A program made the position numbers and the translations under genes. DNA of 35,232 bases from Candidatus Gottesmanbacteria bacterium RIFCSPHIGHO2_02_FULL_39_11. GTDB taxonomy: Bacteria; Patescibacteriota; Microgenomatia; 2-02-FULL-39-11. Position 1 is the first letter of the stretch. Each line of letters begins with the position of its first letter. Below, in pieces: positions 1-20,304 of the stretch. Below the pieces are notes generated by a model. That model made no database searches and was not told the origin of the DNA. It saw only the letters and a list, made by a program, of their open reading frames with translations. The stretch is taken from contig MFJL01000044.1 of NCBI GenBank assembly GCA_001779195.1, forward strand, positions 19,199 through 54,430, in the 5' to 3' direction.

Positions 1-2447
1 ATCTCCTCATTCCTCTGATTCAAAAAGGAAGATAAATCGAGGTGAGAGAGGTCAGATCTGTTAAAGCCTAATTCTTCCCCGACTTCAGCCAATAACTCGA
101 GGGCCAAACTGATATTTTTAGTAAAAGTAAATTTATATAATTCCCGCGCTTCAATAGATCTTTTGATAAACTTTAAAAGTTTTTCCCCGTCTGAATTTAT
201 TTTATGGAAACTACACGCTTTGGATATTTTGGTTATAACATGAGCATCTAATTTTCTACTGATTTGATCGATTCTCCCTGTGTCCGCCTTTTTATCTGAA
301 ATATGAATCATATCGGAATTTGAAACAAGATAAGATGCGTTTTTGCTGTACGGTAATTTAGTAATGTCAAAAGTTCCCGGCCTTAGATGGCCGTATTTCT
401 CAAGAAAACTCCCTATTTTGATTTGTTTCTTTCTAAGCTTAATAAAATCCATATCTAAATCTGTTGCAACGGTGGATATCGAAGACATAAAGAAATCAAA
501 TTCAACAGGGGAAATTATACCAAGATGTTTAAGGCTTCTAAGGAGAGCATTCCCGAAAAAAGCCATCCTGGCAGCTTGCGAAAACTGAAAAGTTCCTAAT
601 TTCCGGCAATCGTCAATTAACCGGTCAATAAAATACAATTTATCCCTCCAATTTTTCGCCAGTCTCAACTGCTTTCTGATCACGGTGTATTTTTGCCCAA
701 GCTCTTTTATATCCTTATCGTCCGTATCAAAAAAGTCGTCAGAGTGTATTAATACGTAATTGGTAAGTCTAAGTAAGGATTTTTTTAATAAATCAATCTC
801 TTTAGAACTGAATTTATCCATAAGCTCTCTTATTCTTTCTTCAAAATCAAACGTATAGCAATTGTACGCGATTTCAAATTCAATTTTGTCATGCAGCTGG
901 GGATTTTTTTTAAGCTTCTCATTATAAAACACTAAAAGTTTCTTTTTTAAATAACCAGGAATATCTTCAGGCAGAAGACTCAAAAATGAATAGCATGTAT
1001 TTATATACGGCTTGTTTCCGATGTTTACCATCAATCCTTCCGTTACTTTGGTGTATCCCAGAGGTACCAAAGCGCTGTTCCAGTTGGATTTCAGTATCAA
1101 ATAGTTGAGAAGCGAGTAATCTAAATAATTAGGTCTGTCTCCAATCAGCTCAGCCGGATTCCAAAAAGCCATATCGCTAAGAATAAGCTCTTTGGTCAAC
1201 ATGTTTTTTCCGTTTTTAATATCGGTATAACTTTTTCGGCATTCCGCGATGCTTTTCCTCACCAAGTCATCATCGATTGACAGGAATCTGGAGTTGGCCG
1301 CAAGGGGTCGGACCTGGAAGATAACAATCTGATTGTTCTTTTTAATTGCGAACTCAATATCGAGTGCAACACCGGAAAAAAATAGTTCTATTTCTTTGAT
1401 GACGGATATAAACTCCTGCCACTCCCGGTTTATTTCATGAAGAGGCAGATCACGCGCTATTTCCACTTTCTTATTCGCCATTCCCCCGGTTACTGCGTCT
1501 GTCTTCTTTCCCATTTCATCATAATTTATGAGGTAATAGGGCGTATTGGTCCCAAGATTTCGGGTAAATACAACCCCGCTTACCTTTACATCTCCGGTCT
1601 GCTCCTGCACCAAAATCTGATCCCTGTCCGAGAACCCTTCATTTTTTTTGTAGCTCTCAATTACCTCGGTAATACCGTCAGTAACTGCACTTCTGTTTTT
1701 TGAATGAATATCCAAAATACTTTTATAATGCCCTGCGTTGGAATATGCGACTGAATCCTCATTCAGACTTGAGCTTCTAATAACAATTTTTTTGTCTTTA
1801 AATAAATCGCTTATTTTATCCAGAATTCTTTCTTTATCTTTTTTCCAATCTGCCAGAATAAATACAAATTCCTTTTCAATTACCGCTTTCTTGAGCTGTG
1901 TTTTCAATTTTTTTAGCGTGTTTGCTTTTGTAGAAAAGTGCTTCTGCAATAAATCCATATTTCCTATTTTGATAGAGTTGAAGGAATAATCAGAAAGCTT
2001 TCTTTCTTCTATAAAAGAATTAAAAAACTTCTTGGCAATATTTTCCCGTGATAAATTCGGGAAGTATTTGTGGGGGACAATCTCTCCGCTGATTTGCTTA
2101 ATGACATCTGAACCGAGTATATCTCCCCACAGCAAATGACTTTGGACCAAAAGAATTTTTGCATTAGGATACTTCTTGTGAATAATTTTAAGATTTTCTG
2201 TAGGATCCATCGAATCCTGAATCATCACCTGATCTACATATAAGATTTTTTGTAGTACTGCTTTTCTTTCCTCACATGAACTGAGAAGCGGAGAGGTCCA
2301 TTTCTTTGCAACGTCATCGCTTATCACACCGCATATATGGAAATCGGCACTCTTTCTTGCTGTTTCCAGCATTTTCAAATGTCCATAATGCAGAAGATCT
2401 CCGATTAAAAAACTGTAAGCGATTTTTTTATTTCCCTTCTTGATCAT
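1..2447 (-). CDS. Fusion of N-terminal HxGH cytidylyltransferase and Cj1418-like L-glutamine kinase (PPDK-family ATP-grasp/PEP-utilising enzyme); 3'-partial
   Basis: Absent from the ORF track because no stop occurs before the window edge. ATG at 2447 overlaps the upstream TGA (ATGA). Manual translation: MIKKGNKKIAYSFLIGDLLHYGHLKML...ERKAVLQKILYVDQV (CTP_transf_like), then FSTKANTL...VIRSSSLNEDSVAYSNAGHYKS...LVQEQ...SGVVFTR...LDIEFA...IFQVRPL (PPDK nucleotide-binding domain), then DMAFWNPAELIGDRP...PQLHDKIEFEIAYNCY...IDDCRKLGT...KYGHLRPGTFDI...EARELYKFTFTK, matching the Cj1418 central domain as I recall it. The phospho-His domain would lie outside the window. Confidence 0.88.
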   Translation of the reverse strand, partial: MIKKGNKKIAYSFLIGDLLHYGHLKMLETARKSADFHICGVISDDVAKKWTSPLLSSCEERKAVLQKILYVDQVMIQDSMDPTENLKIIHKKYPNAKILLVQSHLLWGDILGSDVIKQISGEIVPHKYFPNLSRENIAKKFFNSFIEERKLSDYSFNSIKIGNMDLLQKHFSTKANTLKKLKTQLKKAVIEKEFVFILADWKKDKERILDKISDLFKDKKIVIRSSSLNEDSVAYSNAGHYKSILDIHSKNRSAVTDGITEVIESYKKNEGFSDRDQILVQEQTGDVKVSGVVFTRNLGTNTPYYLINYDEMGKKTDAVTGGMANKKVEIARDLPLHEINREWQEFISVIKEIELFFSGVALDIEFAIKKNNQIVIFQVRPLAANSRFLSIDDDLVRKSIAECRKSYTDIKNGKNMLTKELILSDMAFWNPAELIGDRPNYLDYSLLNYLILKSNWNSALVPLGYTKVTEGLMVNIGNKPYINTCYSFLSLLPEDIPGYLKKKLLVFYNEKLKKNPQLHDKIEFEIAYNCYTFDFEERIRELMDKFSSKEIDLLKKSLLRLTNYVLIHSDDFFDTDDKDIKELGQKYTVIRKQLRLAKNWRDKLYFIDRLIDDCRKLGTFQFSQAARMAFFGNALLRSLKHLGIISPVEFDFFMSSISTVATDLDMDFIKLRKKQIKIGSFLEKYGHLRPGTFDITKLPYSKNASYLVSNSDMIHISDKKADTGRIDQISRKLDAHVITKISKACSFHKINSDGEKLLKFIKRSIEARELYKFTFTKNISLALELLAEVGEELGFNRSDLSHLDLSSFLNQRNEE

Positions 2448-3193
2448 CTTTTATACTTTCTAAGAAACTTAAAGGTTGCGTACTTATTTTCTAGTTTTAA
2501 GTTGGAATAATAAAGAGAAAATATCAGATATAAAAATAGGAGCCGCAGCAAGATGAAAAAACCGAATATAATATAGGTGACGTGCAGTATATTAAAAAAT
2601 ATTCCTATAAGTAAATAATATTTGGCGGTAAAAAATACAGAATAAATAAGATTAGAGGGGATAAGCATATTTTTAAGAAAATTATCAGCGAACGATTTTC
2701 TGTATGTGAATAATTTATAAAGCTGCTCATTTCCTGCGGCAAAGTCTAGTCCAAATTCAGAGTTTAATTTCTGCCCCAGCATATTCGCCATCGACTGTCC
2801 CAATAATGGAAGCAAAGCCAAATACTTCCAGTTCTCACCGCTATACTGTATGAGGATATGAAGCGTAATGCTAAAAAGAATGATCATTTGAGTCAGGGGA
2901 TCAAAACCGTTTTCCATCCATTCACCTAACTTAGACTGCATATTTTTTTTCCTTGCTAATCCTCCGTCTAAAACATCAAAAAAAGTGTTGATTACGATAA
3001 TAAACAAGGCCAACATATTATTCCAAAATCCCCCAAGAAAAAATAAGTAAGCCAGAATCGGCGTAAAAATTATAAAATTCAAAAAAGTGATTTGATTTGG
3101 CGTGATAGTTGATTTTGACAGTACCGTAACGAATGGATCCGCTACTATCCTGAATACGGCTATCATAAAATCGTTTGTTCTTCGTTTTTTCAT
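2444..3193 (-). CDS. CDP-alcohol phosphatidyltransferase family membrane protein
   Basis: ITPNQIT helix; motif DVLDGGLAR-x8-GEWMENGFD (canonical DxxDGxxAR...GxxxDxxxD with one Asp replaced by Glu); multiple TM segments. Confidence 0.85.
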   Translation of the reverse strand: MKKRRTNDFMIAVFRIVADPFVTVLSKSTITPNQITFLNFIIFTPILAYLFFLGGFWNNMLALFIIVINTFFDVLDGGLARKKNMQSKLGEWMENGFDPLTQMIILFSITLHILIQYSGENWKYLALLPLLGQSMANMLGQKLNSEFGLDFAAGNEQLYKLFTYRKSFADNFLKNMLIPSNLIYSVFFTAKYYLLIGIFFNILHVTYIIFGFFILLRLLFLYLIFSLYYSNLKLENKYATFKFLRKYKR

Positions 3194-3197
3194 ATCG

Positions 3198-3932
3198 TTA
3201 TGATTTGTCCGCTTTTATCCAGATAAAAGCCGAGAAATTTTTTATTAGGGGAGTTTTGACCAATAATTTGTTCAGAGATATAATCGGAGGAATAATAGTA
3301 CCGACCCGGGATGGAATAACGGCATATCTTTCCAGGATAATATTTTTGAAGCCGCTAAGATGAAGTAAATTCTTCAGTTTTTTCGGAGTGCTGTTTAAAA
3401 ACTCCTTCTCCACTTCCCATCTGCCTGTATCTGTTCCGGTTATTTCCTTAAGTAAATACCAGGGATAGTATAAAAGACAAAAGGGGTTTGGCTCAATAAT
3501 TGCAATCTTACCTCCTCTTTTTAATGCAGAATGGATATTCTTCATAATCAAAAGCTTGGTATCAGGATTCAGATGATGAATTATATTGCAGCAAATTGCG
3601 ATATCAAATTTATTTCTGAATTCCGGTTTTTCCAAACTGGTTTTCTTCAGTGTCAAGTTTTTTATTAAATTTTCTTTTCTTGCTATATGTGCAATCTCCG
3701 TTATATTTTTTTCCGCTATCTCGGTACCCGTCACTTCGTACCCTTTTTTCAGTAGAGGGATGGTCAGCCTCCCTCCGCCGCATCCCACATCCAGTATTTT
3801 TGTTTTTCCGAGCAAATTAATAAAATTAAAAAAGTTTTCAAGCTCTATTATTGCTGGCACAGTCATTTTTGTACGGGCTATATCATATGCTTCCTTATTC
3901 CAATATTTTTCCTGCCTGGTATTATGATTCAT
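3198..3932 (-). CDS. Class I SAM-dependent methyltransferase
   Basis: KILDVGCGGGR motif I; FDIAICCNIIHHL; LKRGGKIAIIEPN. Confidence 0.9.
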   Translation of the reverse strand: MNHNTRQEKYWNKEAYDIARTKMTVPAIIELENFFNFINLLGKTKILDVGCGGGRLTIPLLKKGYEVTGTEIAEKNITEIAHIARKENLIKNLTLKKTSLEKPEFRNKFDIAICCNIIHHLNPDTKLLIMKNIHSALKRGGKIAIIEPNPFCLLYYPWYLLKEITGTDTGRWEVEKEFLNSTPKKLKNLLHLSGFKNIILERYAVIPSRVGTIIPPIISLNKLLVKTPLIKNFSAFIWIKADKS

Positions 3933-3977: not shown

Positions 3978-5117
3978 TCAGTAGCAATTTACAATAGCCG
4001 TTACATTTTTTTCGCTGAATTTTTTCAATGCATACAGTCTAGATGATTTTGTCATCTGATTGAGTAAAACTTTGTCATGATACAGCTTTTTAATTGCATT
4101 ACCAATTTCAACCGGTTCAGGATTAACCAAAAATCCAACAGATTTATCCATAAGGGAAGGAATCGCTCCCAAGTTTGAACCTATTACAGGAGTTCCGCAC
4201 GCAAAAGATTCTACAACAGTTCGTGCGGCATTTTCAGAATACCGGGACGGGATAACAAACACATCTGCCGCGGCATAATATTCCCGTAATTTTTCATACT
4301 CCATCCCTTCGATAAACAGTATATTCCTGCTATTTTTACTCTCGTTTCTTAAAACATCAACCATCGGCCCGTCCCTGGAAATAAAAACAAAAGTGATATC
4401 CATTTTTTGCAGCCTTTTTGATGCGTCTATCACTATATCGGCTCCTTTTATTTTTATAGCTCGTGCAACAAACAAAACGATAAAATTGGACGGAAGATTC
4501 AAATTCCTTTTTGCCAGCTTTTTATTTAACGGTTTAAACATATCCAGATCGACCCATTCTACAAAGGTAGTTATCTTATTTTCCGGAATGCCGATTCCCA
4601 CTAATTCTTTTTTAGACGCCTCACTTTCGGCGATTACGTGGTCTGCGCGGGAAAGTGTCCATGAAACCACTCTCGCAAAAAGGGAGCCGGGCTGAAAATC
4701 ATACAGAGACATAATACTTGCTACCGCACGCTTCCTGAATAAATATCTGAAGATAACGGCGATGAAAGAACTATTAAGCCCCTGTGCATCAATAACATCA
4801 ATTTTCTTATGATTCCACAGCATCCACCAGAAAGAACGGATGAATAAATAAGGAGTTATATAGGCAAACAGAAACAGAGGATATTTTTCAAGCTTGTGAA
4901 ACCAATTATCTCCTATCCACTGGAAACGCCGTATTTCCAGATTTTTTCCTTTTTCTAAGGATTCTCCTTTTTGATTGCCGGAAATGGGCTGGTAGGTCAA
5001 AACATAGACGAAATAGTTTCGCTTTCTGAGTGCCTCCGTCAGCTCATTGGCGTATGTTTCTGCGCCTCCTACATTCGGCCTGAAAACAAATGTTAGAATT
5101 AAAACTTTTTTAATCAC
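3978..5117 (-). CDS. Glycosyltransferase family 4 (GT-B)
   Basis: FRPNVGGAE N-terminus; ADVFVIPSRYSENAARTVVESFACGTPVIGS (Ex7E). Start moved to GTG 5117, which overlaps the upstream TGA (GTGA); the ORF-track extension to 5216 lies inside the upstream gene. Confidence 0.88.
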   Translation of the reverse strand: MIKKVLILTFVFRPNVGGAETYANELTEALRKRNYFVYVLTYQPISGNQKGESLEKGKNLEIRRFQWIGDNWFHKLEKYPLFLFAYITPYLFIRSFWWMLWNHKKIDVIDAQGLNSSFIAVIFRYLFRKRAVASIMSLYDFQPGSLFARVVSWTLSRADHVIAESEASKKELVGIGIPENKITTFVEWVDLDMFKPLNKKLAKRNLNLPSNFIVLFVARAIKIKGADIVIDASKRLQKMDITFVFISRDGPMVDVLRNESKNSRNILFIEGMEYEKLREYYAAADVFVIPSRYSENAARTVVESFACGTPVIGSNLGAIPSLMDKSVGFLVNPEPVEIGNAIKKLYHDKVLLNQMTKSSRLYALKKFSEKNVTAIVNCY

Positions 5118-7681
5118 AGTAAGCGAGAAGATTTCAACTTTATAAGATAAACCGATGCAATAATCAGTGTAAGAATCGAAACGGCAGTGCCGCCATAGAC
5201 TAGCCGTTGAGGCCAATATTCTATGACTAATTCAATTTCATAACTCCCGTCTGAGTTTTTTAGACACAGATTTGATGTTTTTGGATTCTTTTTCTGTGAA
5301 CATAGATCATTAGGATCAATTATCCAGCTATTGGCAAAACCATTTACTTTCAGATGATTCTTCTCATCTAATAATTTTCTAAACCATGTTTCCAATAAGA
5401 ATCCGTCGGGTAAATTATTATTTTGTATTGTATACTGAAAATTCTTGGATATAAAGTCAATCCTATTTTTGCTGCCCTCTAAAGCAGATACCCATCCTTT
5501 GTCCAGAAAACCTTCCAGCTCATTCTTATTTGCCTGATCTTCAAGATTTCTTTCTTCAGGTTTATAATTTTCCAGATTTATTTTTGGATTTTGGATTTTG
5601 TCCGCCGGTTGGCGGATTGGATTTACTATGTATGCTTTCCATCCGTTATCATAAGACTCAGAAAAAATAAGAGGGAAAACACTCTTTGCCTGATGAACTC
5701 TTATTCTTAATTTGGTTGGGTTAACTGACTTATATTCTAATATCGGCTGTTCGGCAAACTCTTCCGGAAGGATTTCCTTTTTTTCTTTTCCTGAATTATC
5801 TTTGGAAAAATAAATAGCGGATGAAACTCCATAATCCAGCTGCGAAGCCACCTGGAGCAAATGATCAGACGTCTCTTCAGAAAAGAAAATTTTCTTCGGT
5901 GTATATATATAGGGAACAGAAAGAGAGGGATCAATTTTATAAAATTTAAGATAGCTTAATTCCTTCACACGTTTTATTTTATGATCATCCGTCTGCGTTT
6001 CAATTTTTTTAAGGCTGGAGTAGAGGAAAGAATTGCTGTCCCTGCTGCTATCGGTTACTATATAGCTGATGTTGAAAAGTGGAAAAACTTTTAACAATAC
6101 ATTGAGATCATCATACGTATAATCCGTTAAGCCGAAGGGAAGAGTTACCATGGTGGGATAGTTGAAAATCCTTGAAAGCATAAAATCAGTACCGTATCCC
6201 CAAAAATGACTTGTTCCCTTACTTCCGTCAGGAGTGAATGGAAAAAGAATTATTCTGCCTGATTTTTTTTCTTTCTGAAGCCAATCTCCGGCAATAAAGT
6301 AATCTTCAGGAATTTTTATATGCTTCGATTTTAAAATTCCCCTTTCGCCTTGTATTATGTCTCCTGTCCAAAATGGTAACGCATTGATTATAAAAAAGAT
6401 AATAAAGACTAAGAAAAGAAAAAATATGCTTACTATCTTCCCGCCTTTATTTTCAACCTTGATATACATATGGGAAATAGTCCACCCGAAAAGAATGGAA
6501 TATCCAAATACAAGAACGGTTCCGAATTTTTCGTACTGTGAGCGAAACATGCTAAATCCGGGAATGGAGAAAAAAAGCCATCTATTGAATTGTCCAAACG
6601 GCTCATGAACGCCTTTTACAAGAAAAAGTGCCATTAATGAAAGAAAAGAAAAAAAAAGCAGGAGACCTTTTATTTTTCTCTCTATTTTCTTCATAAAAAA
6701 AGAAATAAAGAGTATTAAGGGAACCGTCAGAGATATAAGTTCTAAAGGAACAGAAAGGTATTTCTGGAAAACCCCCGGGTAGTAAGGGTCTCCTTGCCAT
6801 TGGTCTTTCAGTGCCCAAAACCCCATGAGTCTAAAAATATTAAAAAAACTTGTATCCAGACTATTTACTTCTGTTGTTTCACCAAAGCTTTTAATACCGG
6901 AGGTGACTTTAAAAGTGTCTTTATACTCTCGGCTTATATCATGTATATAAGGGAATACAAGCCAAGCGTTTAAAAAAACAACAAGCAAAATGAATTGAAA
7001 AGTAAATAATAGGGAGTGTTTGAATTTATTTCTGTCCCAGTATAATAAATTATGAAAAATAAAATAGAAAAAAAGGACAATAAATATCAACAATGGATAG
7101 GTAGGAGTAGTAGATGAAGGAGCTACAAGGAAAAAAGTGATAGCTCCGGCAAAAGCATATAATAATCCCTTACGAGATTCCAAACCTTTCATATAGAACA
7201 ACAGACTAAGAGGCAGGAAAATATATGCAAACATAGACTGAAGCTGGTTTGGCCATTTGAAAAAGAGAGTATACGTATTAAACATGTAAAAAAGTGATGC
7301 AACAAAAGCAGCAAGATCATGCGTTTTGCTGCTACGAAAAGCATACCTAACCAGAAAAAACATGGTCAGTCCGGAAATGGACAGGATAAGGTAAAAAAAT
7401 ATTTTTTCCAGCGTAAAAAGAGATAAACCTACCATACTTCCAAATGCAACTAATAATTCATAGGGGAAAACCTCTGCTATACCTTTGGACGGTATTCCCA
7501 GTCCGTTTCCTACAAATCGGTCCCAGACGTATAAATCGTTTACCAATTCATTCACGGGGCGGAAAGGAGGTTTAAAATCTCCAGCATAAATCAGATGGTC
7601 TTTTTTAAACCATAAAAAAGTTACACAAGCCAATAATAAAATAGCAGATATAAAGAAAACCGGGATTAATTTTTTTCTCAT
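5114..7681 (-). CDS. Large multi-TM membrane protein, GT-C-like (AftD/YfhO-type) with extracellular C-terminal domain
   Basis: About 12 hydrophobic segments in the N-terminal ~440 aa (AGDF, SLFYMFN, FRLMGFW, MFRSQYEKF), LIFSESYDNGWKAY and HLKVNGFANSW motifs typical of YfhO-like C-termini, final TM helix. Confidence 0.65.
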   Translation of the reverse strand: MRKKLIPVFFISAILLLACVTFLWFKKDHLIYAGDFKPPFRPVNELVNDLYVWDRFVGNGLGIPSKGIAEVFPYELLVAFGSMVGLSLFTLEKIFFYLILSISGLTMFFLVRYAFRSSKTHDLAAFVASLFYMFNTYTLFFKWPNQLQSMFAYIFLPLSLLFYMKGLESRKGLLYAFAGAITFFLVAPSSTTPTYPLLIFIVLFFYFIFHNLLYWDRNKFKHSLLFTFQFILLVVFLNAWLVFPYIHDISREYKDTFKVTSGIKSFGETTEVNSLDTSFFNIFRLMGFWALKDQWQGDPYYPGVFQKYLSVPLELISLTVPLILFISFFMKKIERKIKGLLLFFSFLSLMALFLVKGVHEPFGQFNRWLFFSIPGFSMFRSQYEKFGTVLVFGYSILFGWTISHMYIKVENKGGKIVSIFFLFLVFIIFFIINALPFWTGDIIQGERGILKSKHIKIPEDYFIAGDWLQKEKKSGRIILFPFTPDGSKGTSHFWGYGTDFMLSRIFNYPTMVTLPFGLTDYTYDDLNVLLKVFPLFNISYIVTDSSRDSNSFLYSSLKKIETQTDDHKIKRVKELSYLKFYKIDPSLSVPYIYTPKKIFFSEETSDHLLQVASQLDYGVSSAIYFSKDNSGKEKKEILPEEFAEQPILEYKSVNPTKLRIRVHQAKSVFPLIFSESYDNGWKAYIVNPIRQPADKIQNPKINLENYKPEERNLEDQANKNELEGFLDKGWVSALEGSKNRIDFISKNFQYTIQNNNLPDGFLLETWFRKLLDEKNHLKVNGFANSWIIDPNDLCSQKKNPKTSNLCLKNSDGSYEIELVIEYWPQRLVYGGTAVSILTLIIASVYLIKLKSSRLL
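5582..5624. repeat. TTTTGGA heptamer repeats with embedded palindrome TCCGCC-GGTT-GGCGGA (5601-5616), in frame within a CDS
   Basis: Sequence ttttgga ttttgga ttttg tccgccggttggcgga ttggattt; encodes NPIRQPADKIQNPK on the minus strand. Confidence 0.6.
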
Positions 7682-9927: not shown

Positions 9928-11610
9928 TTACTTTGTAAGAACTGCTTCAAAAAGTCTGTAAAACCCTGCAAAACGGTCAATTTTAGTGAATCTTAAGACA
10001 AGAAGCGAGATCTTAATAAGCTTATTGCGTTTGAGCGCTGAAGGCATATAGTCTTGAAAAATCTTATCAGAATAGCACAGGGTTTTTAAGGAAACTATAT
10101 TAAATTTTTGCTTTTTCATGAATTGAGTAAAACTTGCTAACGTAAAGAAATTCAACCAGTATTTGTATTCTTTTATTTTATGAAAAAAAAGTTTATAGAT
10201 GAAATTTTCCAATAATAAGTGACTATTTTCGTTGTCTCCTATAAAAAGATATCCGTCAGGCTTTAATATTCTTCTGACTTCCTTCATAAAAATATTTGGG
10301 TTTTTGATATCTACTAAAACAGCATCTATATTGATAACGTCAAAAAAATCATCGGGATATCCTGCACAGGTGAGCTCTCCGTGAAACATTTTCAAAGGAA
10401 AACCCTTTTCCCGTGCAATTCTACAGGCATTTTCTGAAACCTCTACTCCAAAAACACGGAAGCCTTCCTTTTGCGCTAATTGAAGAAGATCTCCTGTGGA
10501 ACAGCCGATATCCAAAAAAGTCTTATTTGAAGACTCCCGAAGGAACTTTTTGATCAGTCCGATTTTATATTTTTTCAATACCGCACGATTCTCTTCGCGC
10601 TCTTTTATATCTTTCAATTTATAGTGACCATAATCTTCATCTGAATAGACGTCTTTAACTTCTGATTCGACAAAATCAAGAGAGTTGTTGTAAAGCATAC
10701 CGCAGTTAGAACATCGAACTACTTCAGCATATTCATCTTTTAAAATTACTTCTATTTTTTCCACTCTCCCTTTCCTAGACGAACAAATGAAACAAACTCT
10801 CGTTTTTTTTGCTTGAGTACTAATAAATTTTCGTTTAATTTCAGTAAAGAAATATCTGATGCAGAGAATAGGAAAATCCCTTATTCTAGGTATACCGTAA
10901 TGTTTTCCAAAGCTTGAAAGTTTAATAATCTTAAATCCCGGTGAATTTATTTTTTCTATAGATTTGGAAAATGTAGGGATAAGAAGTTTACTTATTAATT
11001 TTGCAACTTCTTCGTAAGAATGACAATTTCTGATATCAGCACGTTCTTCATAAAACAAGCTGCCTTTATCCAGTCCCTCATTTAATTTTTGAACTGATAT
11101 ATTTATGTATTTTTCGTTGTGTAAATATGCTTCCAAAGTAGAAGAGAAACCGCGATATTTTCTTAAATCTCCTGTGTGGTAACTTAAAACACCTGCCGGG
11201 GTACATCTTAATATTTCACCCTGTAATATGCCAAAACCGCGCCGGAAGACAAGATCAATCTTCTTAGTTTTAATTTTCTTTATAGTTTCTTCGGGTAAAG
11301 CGGTACCGTGTTTTCCTGATTTGATAGCAGAACTGTAATAAATTTCACTTTTATTAAATAAACTCAAATTATTGATTGATATTCTTTCAGCTAATTCTAT
11401 CTGCCATCCGATAATGTCTCTTATCAGAGTAATTATTTTTTGTATAAATTTTTTTTGAAAAGATAAATCATAGTCTTTAACATGCACTTTTTTGATGATT
11501 ACTAGAGGGATAGAAATATTATTTTCCGATACGGCTTTTTGAAGCGCCAGAGCTACCCACTTCATTATTTTAGGTTCATCCAGTAATAAACATATTTTTT
11601 TAACTTTCAT
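9928..11610 (-). CDS. Formyltransferase-like domain fused to Zn-ribbon class I SAM methyltransferase
   Basis: N-half: DLVFRRGFGIL...GVLSYHTGDLRKYRG...VQKLNEGLDKG (Formyl_trans_N pattern). C-half: CFIC...CSNC, then FLDIGCSTG, VFGVEVS, ILKPDGYLFI. Confidence 0.75.
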   Translation of the reverse strand: MKVKKICLLLDEPKIMKWVALALQKAVSENNISIPLVIIKKVHVKDYDLSFQKKFIQKIITLIRDIIGWQIELAERISINNLSLFNKSEIYYSSAIKSGKHGTALPEETIKKIKTKKIDLVFRRGFGILQGEILRCTPAGVLSYHTGDLRKYRGFSSTLEAYLHNEKYINISVQKLNEGLDKGSLFYEERADIRNCHSYEEVAKLISKLLIPTFSKSIEKINSPGFKIIKLSSFGKHYGIPRIRDFPILCIRYFFTEIKRKFISTQAKKTRVCFICSSRKGRVEKIEVILKDEYAEVVRCSNCGMLYNNSLDFVESEVKDVYSDEDYGHYKLKDIKEREENRAVLKKYKIGLIKKFLRESSNKTFLDIGCSTGDLLQLAQKEGFRVFGVEVSENACRIAREKGFPLKMFHGELTCAGYPDDFFDVINIDAVLVDIKNPNIFMKEVRRILKPDGYLFIGDNENSHLLLENFIYKLFFHKIKEYKYWLNFFTLASFTQFMKKQKFNIVSLKTLCYSDKIFQDYMPSALKRNKLIKISLLVLRFTKIDRFAGFYRLFEAVLTK

Positions 11611-15162: not shown

Positions 15163-15813
15163 ATGAATATAATTCAGACGGCCAAAGTATTAAGCATCCG
15201 CATCCTGACTGAATCAACCTATATTCTCAGAATCGAACGCAACAAATTCAAATTTATCCCCGGTCAATGCGTGAATATCGGACTTGTCGGAAGTGCCGTA
15301 AATAGGGAATATTCCACCTATTCCGGTACTAAGGATACTTATCTCGAGTTTCTCATAAGAAAAATTAATGGAGGAGCTGTATCTGTTGGCCTGAGCCAGC
15401 TAACACCCGGAGAAGAGGTAACTTTAGACGGAGCTTACGGCACATTTACTATAAAAAAACCTGCTAAGATAGGAAAATATATTTTTGTAGCATCCGGAAC
15501 AGGAATTGCTCCATTTCATTCTTACGTAAAATCCTATCCTAAAATCGATTATCGGATTATCCATGGAATTCGTTTTGATTCGGAACAATATGATAAACAG
15601 GATTATGGAAAAGGCAGGTACGTCAGTTGCATATCACGGGGAAAAGGCGGCGACTTTTCCGGCCGGGTAACTGATTATTTAAAAAAAATACCTATTCCTC
15701 TTGATACCCTTTACTATCTATGCGGCAATAGGGCAATGATCAATGACGTCTATGATATATTAAGAATAAAAGGAGTAAACGGGAGTAATATCATTACAGA
15801 AGTTTTCTTTTAA
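15163..15813 (+). CDS. Ferredoxin/flavodoxin-NADP+ reductase-like FAD/NAD(P)-binding oxidoreductase
   Basis: FIPGQ, REYS (RxYS), GAVS, ASGTGIAPF, YLCG, C-terminal aromatic EVFF. Confidence 0.88.
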   Translation: MNIIQTAKVLSIRILTESTYILRIERNKFKFIPGQCVNIGLVGSAVNREYSTYSGTKDTYLEFLIRKINGGAVSVGLSQLTPGEEVTLDGAYGTFTIKKPAKIGKYIFVASGTGIAPFHSYVKSYPKIDYRIIHGIRFDSEQYDKQDYGKGRYVSCISRGKGGDFSGRVTDYLKKIPIPLDTLYYLCGNRAMINDVYDILRIKGVNGSNIITEVFF

Positions 15814-15816
15814 CGT

Positions 15817-17322
15817 ATGAAGATCGCCATTTCCTATCCCCCAATTATCAACAAACGTGGACAAAAAGCCATGGTGTCCCAAAACCGCAACGTCCAGTTC
15901 TTCAAAACTCCCACTTATCTTTTGCCGATTATCCAGGCACAAGGGGCAACGTGGCTAAGAAACCTCGGATATGATCTGAGGTGGGATGACGGAAACGCCC
16001 AACTGAAAAGCTTAGAGAACTGGTTTGCCGAATTAGTTTCCTGGCAGCCTGATGTAGTTGTATTTGAAAGTACTACTCCCGTCATGAAATTTTACTGGGA
16101 AGTGACGAATAAACTTCGAAAAAAACTGCCCAAAACGATTTTTATTATGACCGGATACCATTCCATGAAACGGCCGGAGGAAACTCTGGAAAAATCAGCA
16201 ACTGATGTCGTAATAAAAAGCAATCACATAGATTTTGCCCTTATCAAACTCATTCCCTATATCGAGAAAAACCCGGATTGGAGGGTATCTTGCCAGATAG
16301 AGGGCCTCACTATCCGGGTAAACAAAACTAAAATACGCGATACCGGGGCATTCCGTCAGGTAGAGCCTCTTGAGAAATCACCCTTAGTAGATCGGGACCT
16401 TGTCGAGTGGAAAAATTATGCTTATGAGAATGGAAATTTTCTGCAGACTCCCGGCACCTACGCCACGAGTGTCATACGGGACTGTATGTTTGGTAAATGT
16501 ACATTCTGCCGGTATAACGGACCGGAATTTACCTTCTCCAAAATGTCCGTGCAAAAAAGCTTAGACGAATACGAAATTCTGATAAATAAATATCATGTCA
16601 AGGAAATTTTTGATGATTCGGGAGTCTGGTACCGGGGGTCTGATGCAAGGGAGTTTGCTCAGGGAATTATCGACCGGGGACTCCACAAGAAAGGATGTTA
16701 TTTTGGCTTTAATACCCGGTTTGAATACCTGGATGAAGAAACCATAAAACTTCTGGCAAAAGCCAATTTCCGCTTTGTACTTATCGGTCTTGAATCGGCA
16801 AGTGATGAGACATTAAGACGCCTAAATAAAGGATACCAAAATCAGTACATCATACCGTCTCTGAAATGGCTTACAAAATACGGACTCCACCCCCATCTGA
16901 CTATCATGGTAGGATATTATTGGGAAACCCAGGAAATGCTTGATAAAACGGTGAAGTTTGTAGAAAAACTGATGTTTGCAGGACTTGCCAGAACACTTCA
17001 AGTAACTATTTGTACGCCGCTTGATTTTACCCCGTATCATTTAGAATGCATCAGTCAAAAGGTTTTACTGACTAAAAATTATGACGATTTCGATATGAGT
17101 CGGGTAATTGTGAAAACTCCAATTCCCCACGAGCGGTATTATGAAGCTATTAAAAGAATGTATGGAATCGCTTTTCATCCGAGGTTTATTGTGAGACAAC
17201 TATTATTTCTGACTTCATTTCGAAAACGCGACTGGCAGTTTCTGTTTACTTATGGAGTTCGGGCAATTAGAAGAGTCCGCAACCACATGTTTAATCTCAC
17301 GGTTCACAGCAAAAATAATTAA
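15817..17322 (+). CDS. B12-binding domain radical SAM protein
   Basis: N-terminal cobalamin-binding-like domain (PDVVVFESTTP...MTGYH), RDCMFGKCTFC cysteine triad, EIFDDSG, IGLESA, LNKG, TIMVGY. Confidence 0.85.
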   Translation: MKIAISYPPIINKRGQKAMVSQNRNVQFFKTPTYLLPIIQAQGATWLRNLGYDLRWDDGNAQLKSLENWFAELVSWQPDVVVFESTTPVMKFYWEVTNKLRKKLPKTIFIMTGYHSMKRPEETLEKSATDVVIKSNHIDFALIKLIPYIEKNPDWRVSCQIEGLTIRVNKTKIRDTGAFRQVEPLEKSPLVDRDLVEWKNYAYENGNFLQTPGTYATSVIRDCMFGKCTFCRYNGPEFTFSKMSVQKSLDEYEILINKYHVKEIFDDSGVWYRGSDAREFAQGIIDRGLHKKGCYFGFNTRFEYLDEETIKLLAKANFRFVLIGLESASDETLRRLNKGYQNQYIIPSLKWLTKYGLHPHLTIMVGYYWETQEMLDKTVKFVEKLMFAGLARTLQVTICTPLDFTPYHLECISQKVLLTKNYDDFDMSRVIVKTPIPHERYYEAIKRMYGIAFHPRFIVRQLLFLTSFRKRDWQFLFTYGVRAIRRVRNHMFNLTVHSKNN

Positions 17323-19006: not shown

Positions 19007-20304
19007 ATCATATTTCTATGAATATTTTTCAGAAGTATATGAGTCAAAACCTTCTTTTCTTTCTGCCAAACAAAAAAAGAAGCGGCAGTAAAATATAACA
19101 AACTGACGAAAATATTTATCCAAATTATCTCCCTGATGGAATTGTGAATAAAGAAGATAAATACACTTTGGAGAAGTGAAATTAAAAAAAGAAAATATAT
19201 AGGTTTACCGGAAGAGATAGAAAGAAGAAAATAGGTGAGAATTGAATTAACCGAGAGCAAAGTTATAAAAAAAGAAAATATACCCATATAAGGAATTGCA
19301 CCGGCATATCTTCCGCCGTAAAGAATCGACAGTATGAGTCCCGGAAACAGAAAATAGGTGAATATTAAGAGGGATGAAATTCCCAAAGCGAATACTAATG
19401 TGCCCAAAAGGGGCATGATATAGGGTGTACCGTTACCGGCTCTTCCGGATACCAAAGGAAACATTACGCTTATAATCGGGCCAATAAGATAGTATATAAT
19501 CTTGCCGACAGTAGACAAAGCAACATATTCGCCGGCAACATCCGGAGCAAAAAAATGCTTCACCAAAATAATATCAGAGGTAAAAAATAGGGTTATGGTA
19601 AGACTCGTCAACAGCACCGGCAACGCAGTCTTCCAATTTAGCCATTTCGGCGCCTTTACGTTCTCTTCTGATGCATATTTGCTGAATAAAATACGAAGCT
19701 CGAGAACAGTAAGCAGATACCCTCCTACAGCCCCTATCAAAGTACCCATCATGGCTCCGACCAGTCCAAAATTCAATATGACCAAAAGTATTGACACAAT
19801 CAGTTTGAGTATTACCTCTACAATACTGTTTGCCGAAAGGTATGAAAACGACAGGGTACCCTGAAGAGTGGCGCGATTAAGAGTTGCAGAAAAACTTAAC
19901 ACGAAGATTAAAGAAATAATGATAAGAGGAAGTGCATTTTCCAACTGGAGAAAAATACTCAGCTTTCCGGCAAATAATATAGTTATTGCTGTCAGAAAAA
20001 TACCCAAGAGAAAAAGTCTCGGGGTTAAATCATGCAGTAAGAGCTTTACGACACCGGTCTTTCTCCCCCCCCAATAGAAAGAGATCGTCTTGACCATCAG
20101 CAACTGAAAAACAGAAAGAGGTATGGAAAAAATAGCTAAAATGGAAAGCGTTGCCCCCAAGTCTCCAAATGCATGCGGAGTAAGCATTCTCCCCATAAAA
20201 AGACTATAGAGGAAATTACCAAAATTTGCCGTGTTGTTGGCTATAAATACAAATAGGCTTCCTCGCACCAACCTACTTTGCGACATGCGTCTGAATATTG
20301 ACAT
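19003..20304 (-). CDS. Wzx-type oligosaccharide flippase
   Basis: About 12 TM helices; GRMLTPHAFG, LQG, DIILVKHFF..AGEY signatures; heads the glycan operon. Confidence 0.85.
   Translation of the reverse strand: MSIFRRMSQSRLVRGSLFVFIANNTANFGNFLYSLFMGRMLTPHAFGDLGATLSILAIFSIPLSVFQLLMVKTISFYWGGRKTGVVKLLLHDLTPRLFLLGIFLTAITILFAGKLSIFLQLENALPLIIISLIFVLSFSATLNRATLQGTLSFSYLSANSIVEVILKLIVSILLVILNFGLVGAMMGTLIGAVGGYLLTVLELRILFSKYASEENVKAPKWLNWKTALPVLLTSLTITLFFTSDIILVKHFFAPDVAGEYVALSTVGKIIYYLIGPIISVMFPLVSGRAGNGTPYIMPLLGTLVFALGISSLLIFTYFLFPGLILSILYGGRYAGAIPYMGIFSFFITLLSVNSILTYFLLSISSGKPIYFLFLISLLQSVFIFFIHNSIREIIWINIFVSLLYFTAASFFVWQKEKKVLTHILLKNIHRNMI

Follow-up and report, generated by a model that had tools for sequence, protein, structure and literature searches.

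To our knowledge, surface groups with a phosphoramidate (phosphorus-nitrogen, P-N) bond are known from Campylobacter capsules only. In Campylobacter jejuni, as outlined in two published accounts, Cj1415 to Cj1418 turn glutamine, ATP and CTP into 3'-phospho-cytidine diphosphoramidate, and Cj1421 and Cj1422 transfer the O-methyl phosphoramidate (MeOPN) group (PMC11800397, PMC3907429). A 2022 review, where it mentions the glutamine kinase, calls it 'C. jejuni-specific' (PMC9561416). A kinase gene of this kind is present in a stretch of 35,232 nucleotides (the window; contig MFJL01000044.1, positions 19,199 to 54,430) from an ultra-small, Gottesmanbacteria-like bacterium of the Patescibacteria, a host far from Campylobacter, as the initial annotation of this DNA supposed. 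The kinase is fused to an HxGH cytidylyltransferase domain and its gene is coupled to one for a membrane cytidine diphosphate (CDP)-alcohol phosphotransferase. It is likely that this locus makes a CDP-activated P-N compound.

Comparable activation steps are described for phosphonates, which have a carbon-phosphorus (C-P) bond. For fusions of the phosphoenolpyruvate (PEP) mutase Ppm, the figures given in one survey are 33% with PF12804, 23.6% with PF01467 and 2.9% with both, and the same source describes the HxGH domain of Fom1 as cytidylylating hydroxyethylphosphonate (PMC6697681). A large phosphonolipid group named 'Burkholderiales_CDP-OH' is described as having two cytidylyltransferases, one of them fused, together with phospholipid-type genes (PMC8942020). 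According to the relevant part of a preprint, the Cobalt Borg region of Methanoperedens elements has Cj1418-, Cj1417- and Cj1416-like genes beside a PEP-mutase-cytidylyltransferase fusion, and within a few genes of these there is a CDP-alcohol phosphotransferase (10.1101/2024.11.05.622173). The literature searched gave no account of an HxGH-kinase fusion or of a CDP-alcohol transferase for P-N transfer, and only the Borg preprint surfaced on the fusion or the CDP-alcohol link.

The genome containing the window is 1.55 Mb in 46 contigs and 92% complete; sampled genomes of the host phylum (n=400) are 0.8 to 2 Mb. Among the best 120 matches to its ribosomal protein L2, the eight that bear an organism name are all Candidatus Gottesmanbacteria, at 61 to 66% identity. 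Three open reading frames (ORFs) on the minus strand form the core of the locus. The first (3198-3932, 244 aa) encodes a putative class I S-adenosylmethionine (SAM)-dependent methyltransferase and the second (2444-3193, 249 aa) an integral-membrane protein of the CDP-alcohol phosphotransferase family (Pfam PF01066). The third (3-2447, 815 aa, open at the left window edge) belongs to a gene that occupies 1-2447 of the window with the first 815 of about 963 codons and matches, on NF004508 and Pfam, an HxGH cytidylyltransferase joined to an ATP-grasp kinase of the glutamine-kinase family. The TAA stop of the methyltransferase gene is followed by a 4 nt gap and then by the ATG of the CDP-alcohol phosphotransferase gene, the stop of which overlaps the start of the kinase gene as ATGA at 2444-2447. 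The three genes are translationally coupled. These junctions, read directly, agree with the initial annotation. It had placed the genes at the end of a glycan operon; five further same-strand ORFs continue leftward beyond the window edge, so the three genes are in the middle of the operon instead.

The part of the kinase within the window scores 570.3 bits on the NCBIfam model NF004508, for which the cut-off is 501, and 40 bits or fewer on the models for PEP synthase, pyruvate phosphate dikinase (PPDK), rifamycin phosphotransferase (Rph) and PigC. On this comparison of family models, which had been set beforehand, the central domain groups with NF004508, and a kinase nearer to the Cj1418 type than to PEP synthase, PPDK or rifampicin phosphotransferase had been expected. 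The PPDK_N ATP-binding (ATP-grasp) domain (PF01326; residues 140-327; 1467-2030, minus strand) scores 54.9 bits against a cut-off of 27. The rest of the gene is to the left of the window. A run of 23 N abuts the window edge (contig 19176-19198) and interrupts the kinase gene; in bridging contigs from three public DNA runs (X1, X3 and X4) the run is replaced by 87 real letters. Because 2 + 87 + 1 bases are 30 codons, the reading frame is kept across the N run, and the whole fusion protein is therefore about 963 aa, matching homologues of 955 to 966 aa. The continuation, in the locus L007 that extends left of the window (L007:18818-19177, minus strand), is the phospho-histidine domain that had been predicted there, a PEP-utilizers swivel domain (PF00391, 54.5 bits) that aligns with positions 669-786 of NF004508 at 171.2 bits. 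It carries GGAGSHMAIR, the histidine of which is presumably the phosphorylated residue, going by the family. Pfam found no PEP/pyruvate-binding domain in either part of the kinase.

All three Pfam domains are present in 110 of the 120 best homologous protein clusters listed, and five of the 120 fused homologues listed have the JGI name 'glutamine kinase'. Among named Atlas clusters the best is PPDK_N, in which Campylobacterota is the commonest phylum (score 0.98); this serves as a lead only. Kinase relatives are encoded in at least 571 stretches of species-representative genomes. The neighbourhood counts given below are for the best 80 of these at least 571 genome loci, 22 with the HxGH-kinase fusion and 58 unfused, with neighbour families clustered from non-overlapping ORFs at 70% mutual coverage. 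There is no Campylobacter among the best 80. Within the host phylum NF004508 is over its cut-off in just 2 of 401 sampled genomes, and in a FastTree phylogeny of the kinase domain the window kinase clusters with Marinimicrobia and Woesearchaeota (support 92-93). Given this rarity, and with its nearest relatives in other phyla, the tree and counts indicate that the kinase module was acquired horizontally.

Two further genes follow the kinase, in the order kinase, C26/GATase, NTP_transf_3. The first, predicted by the initial annotation to be left of the window, encodes a Cj1417-like class-I amidotransferase (Peptidase_C26/GATase by Pfam; L007:18110-18805, minus strand). Its best NCBIfam match is NF045546, gamma-glutamyl-CDP-amidate hydrolase (E 1.5e-22), and it contains GICRGMQ and WHPE motifs. 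The second encodes a Cj1416-like NTP_transf_3 nucleotidyltransferase (L007:17336-18106, minus strand; PF12804, 62.5 bits), for which LicC and PntC are the nearest structures and no specific model was matched. The triad is found in both bacteria and archaea, its range extending from Lachnospiraceae of the gut to Woesearchaeota. Among the fused loci, 19 have separate C26 and NTP_transf_3 genes, usually directly downstream, two have C26 only and one is on a cut contig; C26 follows the kinase in 21 of the 22. Both genes accompany the kinase in 18 of the unfused loci; in 19 the kinase and C26 form one ORF and NTP_transf_3 is lacking, in nine C26 alone is present, and in 12 there is neither. The single-ORF loci, 19 of the 80 and without an NTP_transf_3 relative nearby, are mostly from Lachnospiraceae and other gut Clostridia (L030, L033-L037, L039-L043, L047, L048, L051, L052, L054-L057 and L071). 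The 12 unfused loci with neither partner share another conserved neighbourhood.

The fused CTP_transf_like (HxGH) domain covers residues 17-100, with HYGH at 20-23 (2148-2399, minus strand), and scores 44.7 bits on PF01467 against a cut-off of 21. Its nearest solved structures are TagD, CCT, ECT and the cytidylyltransferase domain of Fom1 (5x3d, E 8e-5). G22 and H23 never vary among 16 fused homologues, and the leading histidine of the motif is H in 13, N in two and T in one. This domain had initially been thought to stand in for Cj1416. That role is ruled out by the NTP_transf_3 gene two genes downstream and by the presence of both in 19 of the 22 fused loci, so the fused domain is an addition to the Cj1416-type enzyme rather than a replacement for it.

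A Cj1415-like adenosine 5'-phosphosulfate (APS) kinase gene, also expected by the initial annotation, did not materialise. No APS_kinase (PF01583) was found in this 92%-complete genome, the control search being positive in 11 of 14 genomes. An APS-kinase gene is present in 11 of the 80 kinase loci. Beside APS kinases in some loci is c15, a 438 aa family without a Pfam match that is found in eight of the 80; Atlas gave an SGNH/GDSL-like lead only, and a Cj1421-like transferase role for c15 is a guess. No c15 homologue was found in the window's genome.

The CDP-alcohol phosphotransferase scores 54.2 bits on PF01066, for which the cut-off is 22. Its best NCBIfam matches are inositol-phosphate-type synthases, all below cut-off. 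With at least five hydrophobic segments (Kyte-Doolittle stretches at 34-80, 97-115 and 182-232), it is, on its hydropathy, a polytopic membrane protein. It has the motif DvlDGglARx8GewmEngfD (DxxDGxxARx8Gx3Ex3D). The family signature is D(x)2DG(x)2AR(x)8G(x)3D(x)3D, in which the third acidic residue is normally Asp. Asp occupies that position in L076 and L011, and the final residue of the motif is His in L018 and L029.

The initial annotation called for co-conservation of the three genes elsewhere, and this is not generally seen. Using a profile built from 81 sequences, a CDP-alcohol transferase was detected in the fetched flanks of 6 of the 80 kinase loci, four fused and two unfused: L009, L011 and L018 from Woesearchaeota, L016 from Methanosarcinales, where it is 8.6 kb off, L029 from Omnitrophota, and L076 from Levybacteria. 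In L076 two tandem transferase copies (L076:8388-9936, plus strand) lie 35 bp upstream of the kinase. The first of these paralogues has a degenerate signature, with GE for DG, S for G and H for the last D, and no Pfam match. The six loci have different transferase subfamilies and are in separate parts of the kinase tree. The association of kinase and transferase is rare, and by this distribution has arisen more than once. The genomes of L076, L018, L009 and L011, which have both the kinase and a CDP-alcohol transferase, gave no APS kinase over the cut-off. A reciprocal metagenome scan with the transferase gave 80 loci, four of them with the kinase triad nearby; these metagenome loci include duplicates, L097 having the sequence of L076, and L104 and L106 being alike.

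The closest relative of the transferase is in L095 (identical to L096), with 47.8% identity over the full length. L095 and the window glycan locus have eight genes in common, at 28 to 56% identity. Directly upstream of the three coupled genes in the window is a family 4 glycosyltransferase (GT4) gene (3978-5216, minus strand; Pfam Glycos_transf_1 and Glyco_transf_4), the true start of which may be 3' of the listed TTG, and the GT4 directly before the transferase in L095 is 41.6% identical to it (E 2e-98). By this comparison the GT4 is a conserved neighbour of this clade of CDP-alcohol transferases. The gene behind the transferase in L095 encodes a PEP_mutase and NTP_transf_3 fusion with the Ppm motif EDKxxxxxNS, and is followed by genes for a thiamine pyrophosphate decarboxylase and an iron-dependent alcohol dehydrogenase. 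From these families, this cassette is read as the donor genes for a hydroxyethyl-type phosphonate activated with cytidine monophosphate (CMP). The NTP_transf_3 protein of the window locus is 26% identical to the Ppm-fused domain of L095 (E 3e-22). Within one glycan-locus frame, then, the donor cassette is of the C-P kind in one case and of the P-N kind in the other. A search of the window's genome for PEP mutase found none, which leaves the P-N module as the one donor-making cassette visible next to the transferase. Elsewhere, in L086 from Kiritimatiellae, about 5 kb separate a Fom1-like CTP_transf_like-PEP_mutase fusion (L086:3096-4427, plus strand) from an unfused glutamine-kinase homologue downstream of it, with P-N and C-P genes adjacent as in the Borg region.

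The 244 aa methyltransferase matches Methyltransf_12/25/11 with E values of 1e-14 to 1e-17; its NCBIfam matches are generic and all below their cut-offs. A methyltransferase gene adjoins the CDP-alcohol transferase in L011 and L129 and is two genes upstream of it in L095. The window and L095 methyltransferases are 30% identical over 117 aa, having the SAM-binding region alone in common, and orthology is not claimed. A second methyltransferase-fold protein in the operon is unk335 (335 aa; L007:14932-15939, minus strand), which has no Pfam match and the model of which (predicted local distance difference test score, pLDDT, 93.6) matches class I methyltransferases only. The unk335 family is small, with 141 representative clusters at E<=1e-3 and Pfam matches in none of 57 members scanned. 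C. jejuni also has two methyltransferases, Cj1419 and Cj1420. The 244 aa protein is a candidate O-methylase of the transferred group.

A pathway can be proposed, as a variant of the Campylobacter MeOPN route, of which we infer every substrate, product and chemical step, the gene order, domain families, scores, neighbourhood statistics and cassette swap being as observed above. The kinase part of the 963 aa fusion, using ATP and its phospho-histidine swivel domain, would phosphorylate L-glutamine at its amide nitrogen. CDP-L-glutamine would then be made by the Cj1416-like NTP_transf_3 enzyme, the fused HxGH domain perhaps helping by trapping the labile product. The Cj1417-like class-I amidotransferase would free glutamate, leaving cytidine diphosphoramidate. 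There would be no Cj1415-type 3'-phosphorylation and no Cj1421/Cj1422-type transferase. Instead, at the CDP-alcohol phosphotransferase, a hydroxyl of the acceptor would attack the beta-phosphorus, releasing CMP and leaving an O-phosphoramidate; the acceptor may be a lipid or a lipid-linked glycan made by the neighbouring GT4. O-methylation by either of the operon's two proteins with a methyltransferase fold may follow. In a variant of this scheme, phosphoglutamine would be transferred from CDP-glutamine and hydrolysed on the acceptor. The whole chain, with the CDP-alcohol enzyme delivering the P-N group to a lipid or lipid-linked glycan, is put forward tentatively, its chances being judged slightly short of even. 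The CDP-alcohol transfer step is considered the best reading because the association recurs in separate kinase lineages and because the L095 relative of the transferase precedes a CMP-phosphonate cassette.

Several observations weigh against this pathway. The link between NF004508 and Cj1418 comes from automatic names, the Atlas lead and gene context, and searches of PDB sequences with the locus proteins gave no entry for Cj1418, Cj1417 or Cj1416. At 80.6 bits the C26 protein falls short of the NF045546 cut-off, which is 250. The fused HxGH domain is a second cytidylyltransferase next to a Cj1416-like enzyme, which the pathway does not account for. In the window transferase the third acidic residue of the motif is Glu, not Asp. 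A CDP-alcohol transferase is a rare partner (6 of the 80 genome loci); by a rough estimate a random 20-kb window would hold such a transferase about 3% of the time, and three of the six loci are Woesearchaeota and so not independent. APS kinase and CDP-alcohol transferase are not strictly alternatives, as L029 and L016 have both, and because the genome is 92% complete the absences recorded from it are provisional.

It is possible, though rather unlikely, that the triad makes a phosphoramidate donor and that the transferase and methyltransferase belong to an ordinary CDP-alcohol branch, for example for a polyol phosphate or an aminoalcohol phosphate, with the P-N group transferred by an unrecognised protein, such as unk207 of the same operon, or by the product of a gene elsewhere. 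There being no glutamine kinase near the transferase homologue in L095, its closest relative, the window enzyme could use another CDP-alcohol. A 3.4-kb metagenome contig (L129:1-2014, plus strand) has genes for a methyltransferase, a standalone CTP_transf_like protein and a CDP-alcohol transferase (CDP-OH_P_transf) with overlapping ends, in the same order as in the window and without the kinase; this too counts against the proposed pathway. In 74 of the 80 kinase loci the fetched flanks are without a CDP-alcohol transferase, so other P-N transferases must exist, and c15 and APS kinase accompany some triads. In addition, the bifunctional IPCT/DIPPS model (inositol-1-phosphate cytidylyltransferase / CDP-inositol phosphotransferase) is matched in one half by the NTP_transf_3 protein, at 55 bits, and in the other by the transferase, at 35 bits. 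However, the only cytidylyltransferases of the operon belong to the P-N module, no enzyme for another phospho-alcohol is recognisable in it, and a donor cassette occupies the same position in L095. Through the ATGA overlap the transferase gene is tied to that of the kinase, and neither c15 nor APS kinase was found in this genome. No other phosphotransferase is seen in the operon, fmt264 having a formyltransferase fold and unk335 a methyltransferase fold.

In another explanation the kinase acts on an alcohol or amine other than glutamine, the fused HxGH domain cytidylylates the product and the CDP-alcohol phosphotransferase transfers it, with no P-N group at the surface. Such a pairing is the textbook arrangement for HxGH enzymes, as for the TagD-, CCT- and ECT-type proteins matched here. 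NF004508 (PRK05849) is itself titled 'hypothetical protein' in NCBIfam, and the 12 of 58 unfused loci without C26 and NTP_transf_3 suggest that the family may have other uses. This explanation appears improbable, in that C26 in 21 and NTP_transf_3 in 19 of the 22 fused loci are explained only by a glutamine-derived intermediate, and the fused HxGH domain seems independent of the CDP-alcohol transferase because only four of the 22 fused loci have one. The adjacency could also have arisen incidentally, through the shuffling of genes in a glycan island gained by horizontal transfer, with the transferase an unrelated lipid head-group enzyme, and the scarcity of NF004508 in the phylum, with the closest kinase relatives in other phyla, would fit this. 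Against it are the translational coupling on both sides of the transferase, the retention of the GT4 and transferase pair in L095, a second PF01066 gene elsewhere in the genome and the recurrence of the adjacency in unrelated lineages, and a shuffling origin is held to be very doubtful. That second PF01066 gene (214 aa) lies within 27449-30262 of contig C32 (L089), between a CTP_transf_like+DUF359 ORF and a Glucosamine_iso gene. It was considered as half of a cytidylyltransferase pair and rejected on account of these neighbours.

The operon upstream of the three coupled genes contains GT4, GT2, DegT, UDP-GlcNAc 2-epimerase, deacetylase, methyltransferase and formyltransferase genes. Between the UDP-GlcNAc 2-epimerase and GT4 genes is one for an 855 aa polytopic membrane protein without a Pfam match (5114-7681, minus strand), and a 578 aa membrane protein of similar type is at L007:10543-12279. 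The same operon encodes a 560 aa fusion of Formyl_trans_N and a class I methyltransferase domain (9928-11610, minus strand). Divergent from the glycan operon, at 15163-17322 on the plus strand, are an FAD/NAD-binding oxidoreductase and a B12-binding radical SAM protein. Beyond the triad, unk207 (207 aa), which has no family, is paired with fmt264 (264 aa) at L007:15951-17331 on the minus strand. Ten of the 80 loci, ranging from Altiarchaeales and Methanosarcinales to Cohnella and Rhodospirillaceae, have relatives of fmt264 beside the kinase triad; the match in L011 lies in a 452 aa ORF.

Taken as a whole, the initial interpretation is partly supported. The locus is a testable candidate for a second delivery route, in which a membrane transferase of the CDP-alcohol type would use cytidine diphosphoramidate directly. 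It also links P-N and C-P surface chemistry by a common logic of cytidylyl activation and transfer. If true, this would mean that episymbiotic ultra-small microbes bear phosphoramidate lipids or glycans of a new class on their surfaces. A broader proposal, conceivable but held with a good deal of doubt, is that CDP-alcohol phosphotransferases are general installers of odd phosphoryl groups activated with CMP, one transferase clade in one glycan-locus frame accepting a phosphonate donor in one organism and a phosphoramidate donor in another, and that ultra-small Patescibacteria and Woesearchaeota have phosphoramidate lipids or lipid-linked glycans made without the Cj1415 and Cj1421/Cj1422 steps. 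P-N surface chemistry would then be widespread and not peculiar to Campylobacter.

Like the MeOPN system of C. jejuni, the locus has a kinase with PPDK_N and phospho-histidine domains, of the family annotated as glutamine kinase, a putative hydrolase of the class-I amidotransferase type, an NTP_transf_3 protein, and a place in a surface-glycan locus with methyltransferases. It differs in the extra N-terminal HxGH domain on the kinase, in that no Cj1415 of the APS-kinase type was found in the 92%-complete genome, in the membrane CDP-alcohol phosphotransferase coupled to the kinase gene, and in its Patescibacteria host. The Borg region differs in its host, an archaeal extrachromosomal element; in the relevant portion of the preprint its authors assign the CDP-alcohol phosphotransferase to phospholipid synthesis, and that portion mentions no HxGH-kinase fusion (10.1101/2024.11.05.622173). 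As in IPCT/DIPPS, an NTP_transf_3 protein and a small CDP-alcohol phosphotransferase would act in sequence, with 55.4 and 35.5 bits on NF041135, but these scores are far below the cut-off of 580 and the two are separate genes, split by the kinase and hydrolase genes. The phosphonyl-tailoring (Pnt) and phosphonolipid clusters, so far as the cited descriptions go, resemble the locus in three respects: the enzyme that forms the unusual bond to phosphorus carries a fused cytidylyltransferase (PF01467 or PF12804), there is often another cytidylyltransferase besides, and the donor for surface lipids or glycans is activated with CMP (PMC6697681, PMC8942020). Here, however, the bond would be P-N, formed by a kinase from glutamine, rather than C-P formed by PEP mutase. 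With Fom1 of fosfomycin biosynthesis the locus shares an HxGH cytidylyltransferase at the N-terminus of the bond-forming enzyme, the partner being a PPDK_N/PEP-utilizers kinase in the one and PEP mutase in the other.

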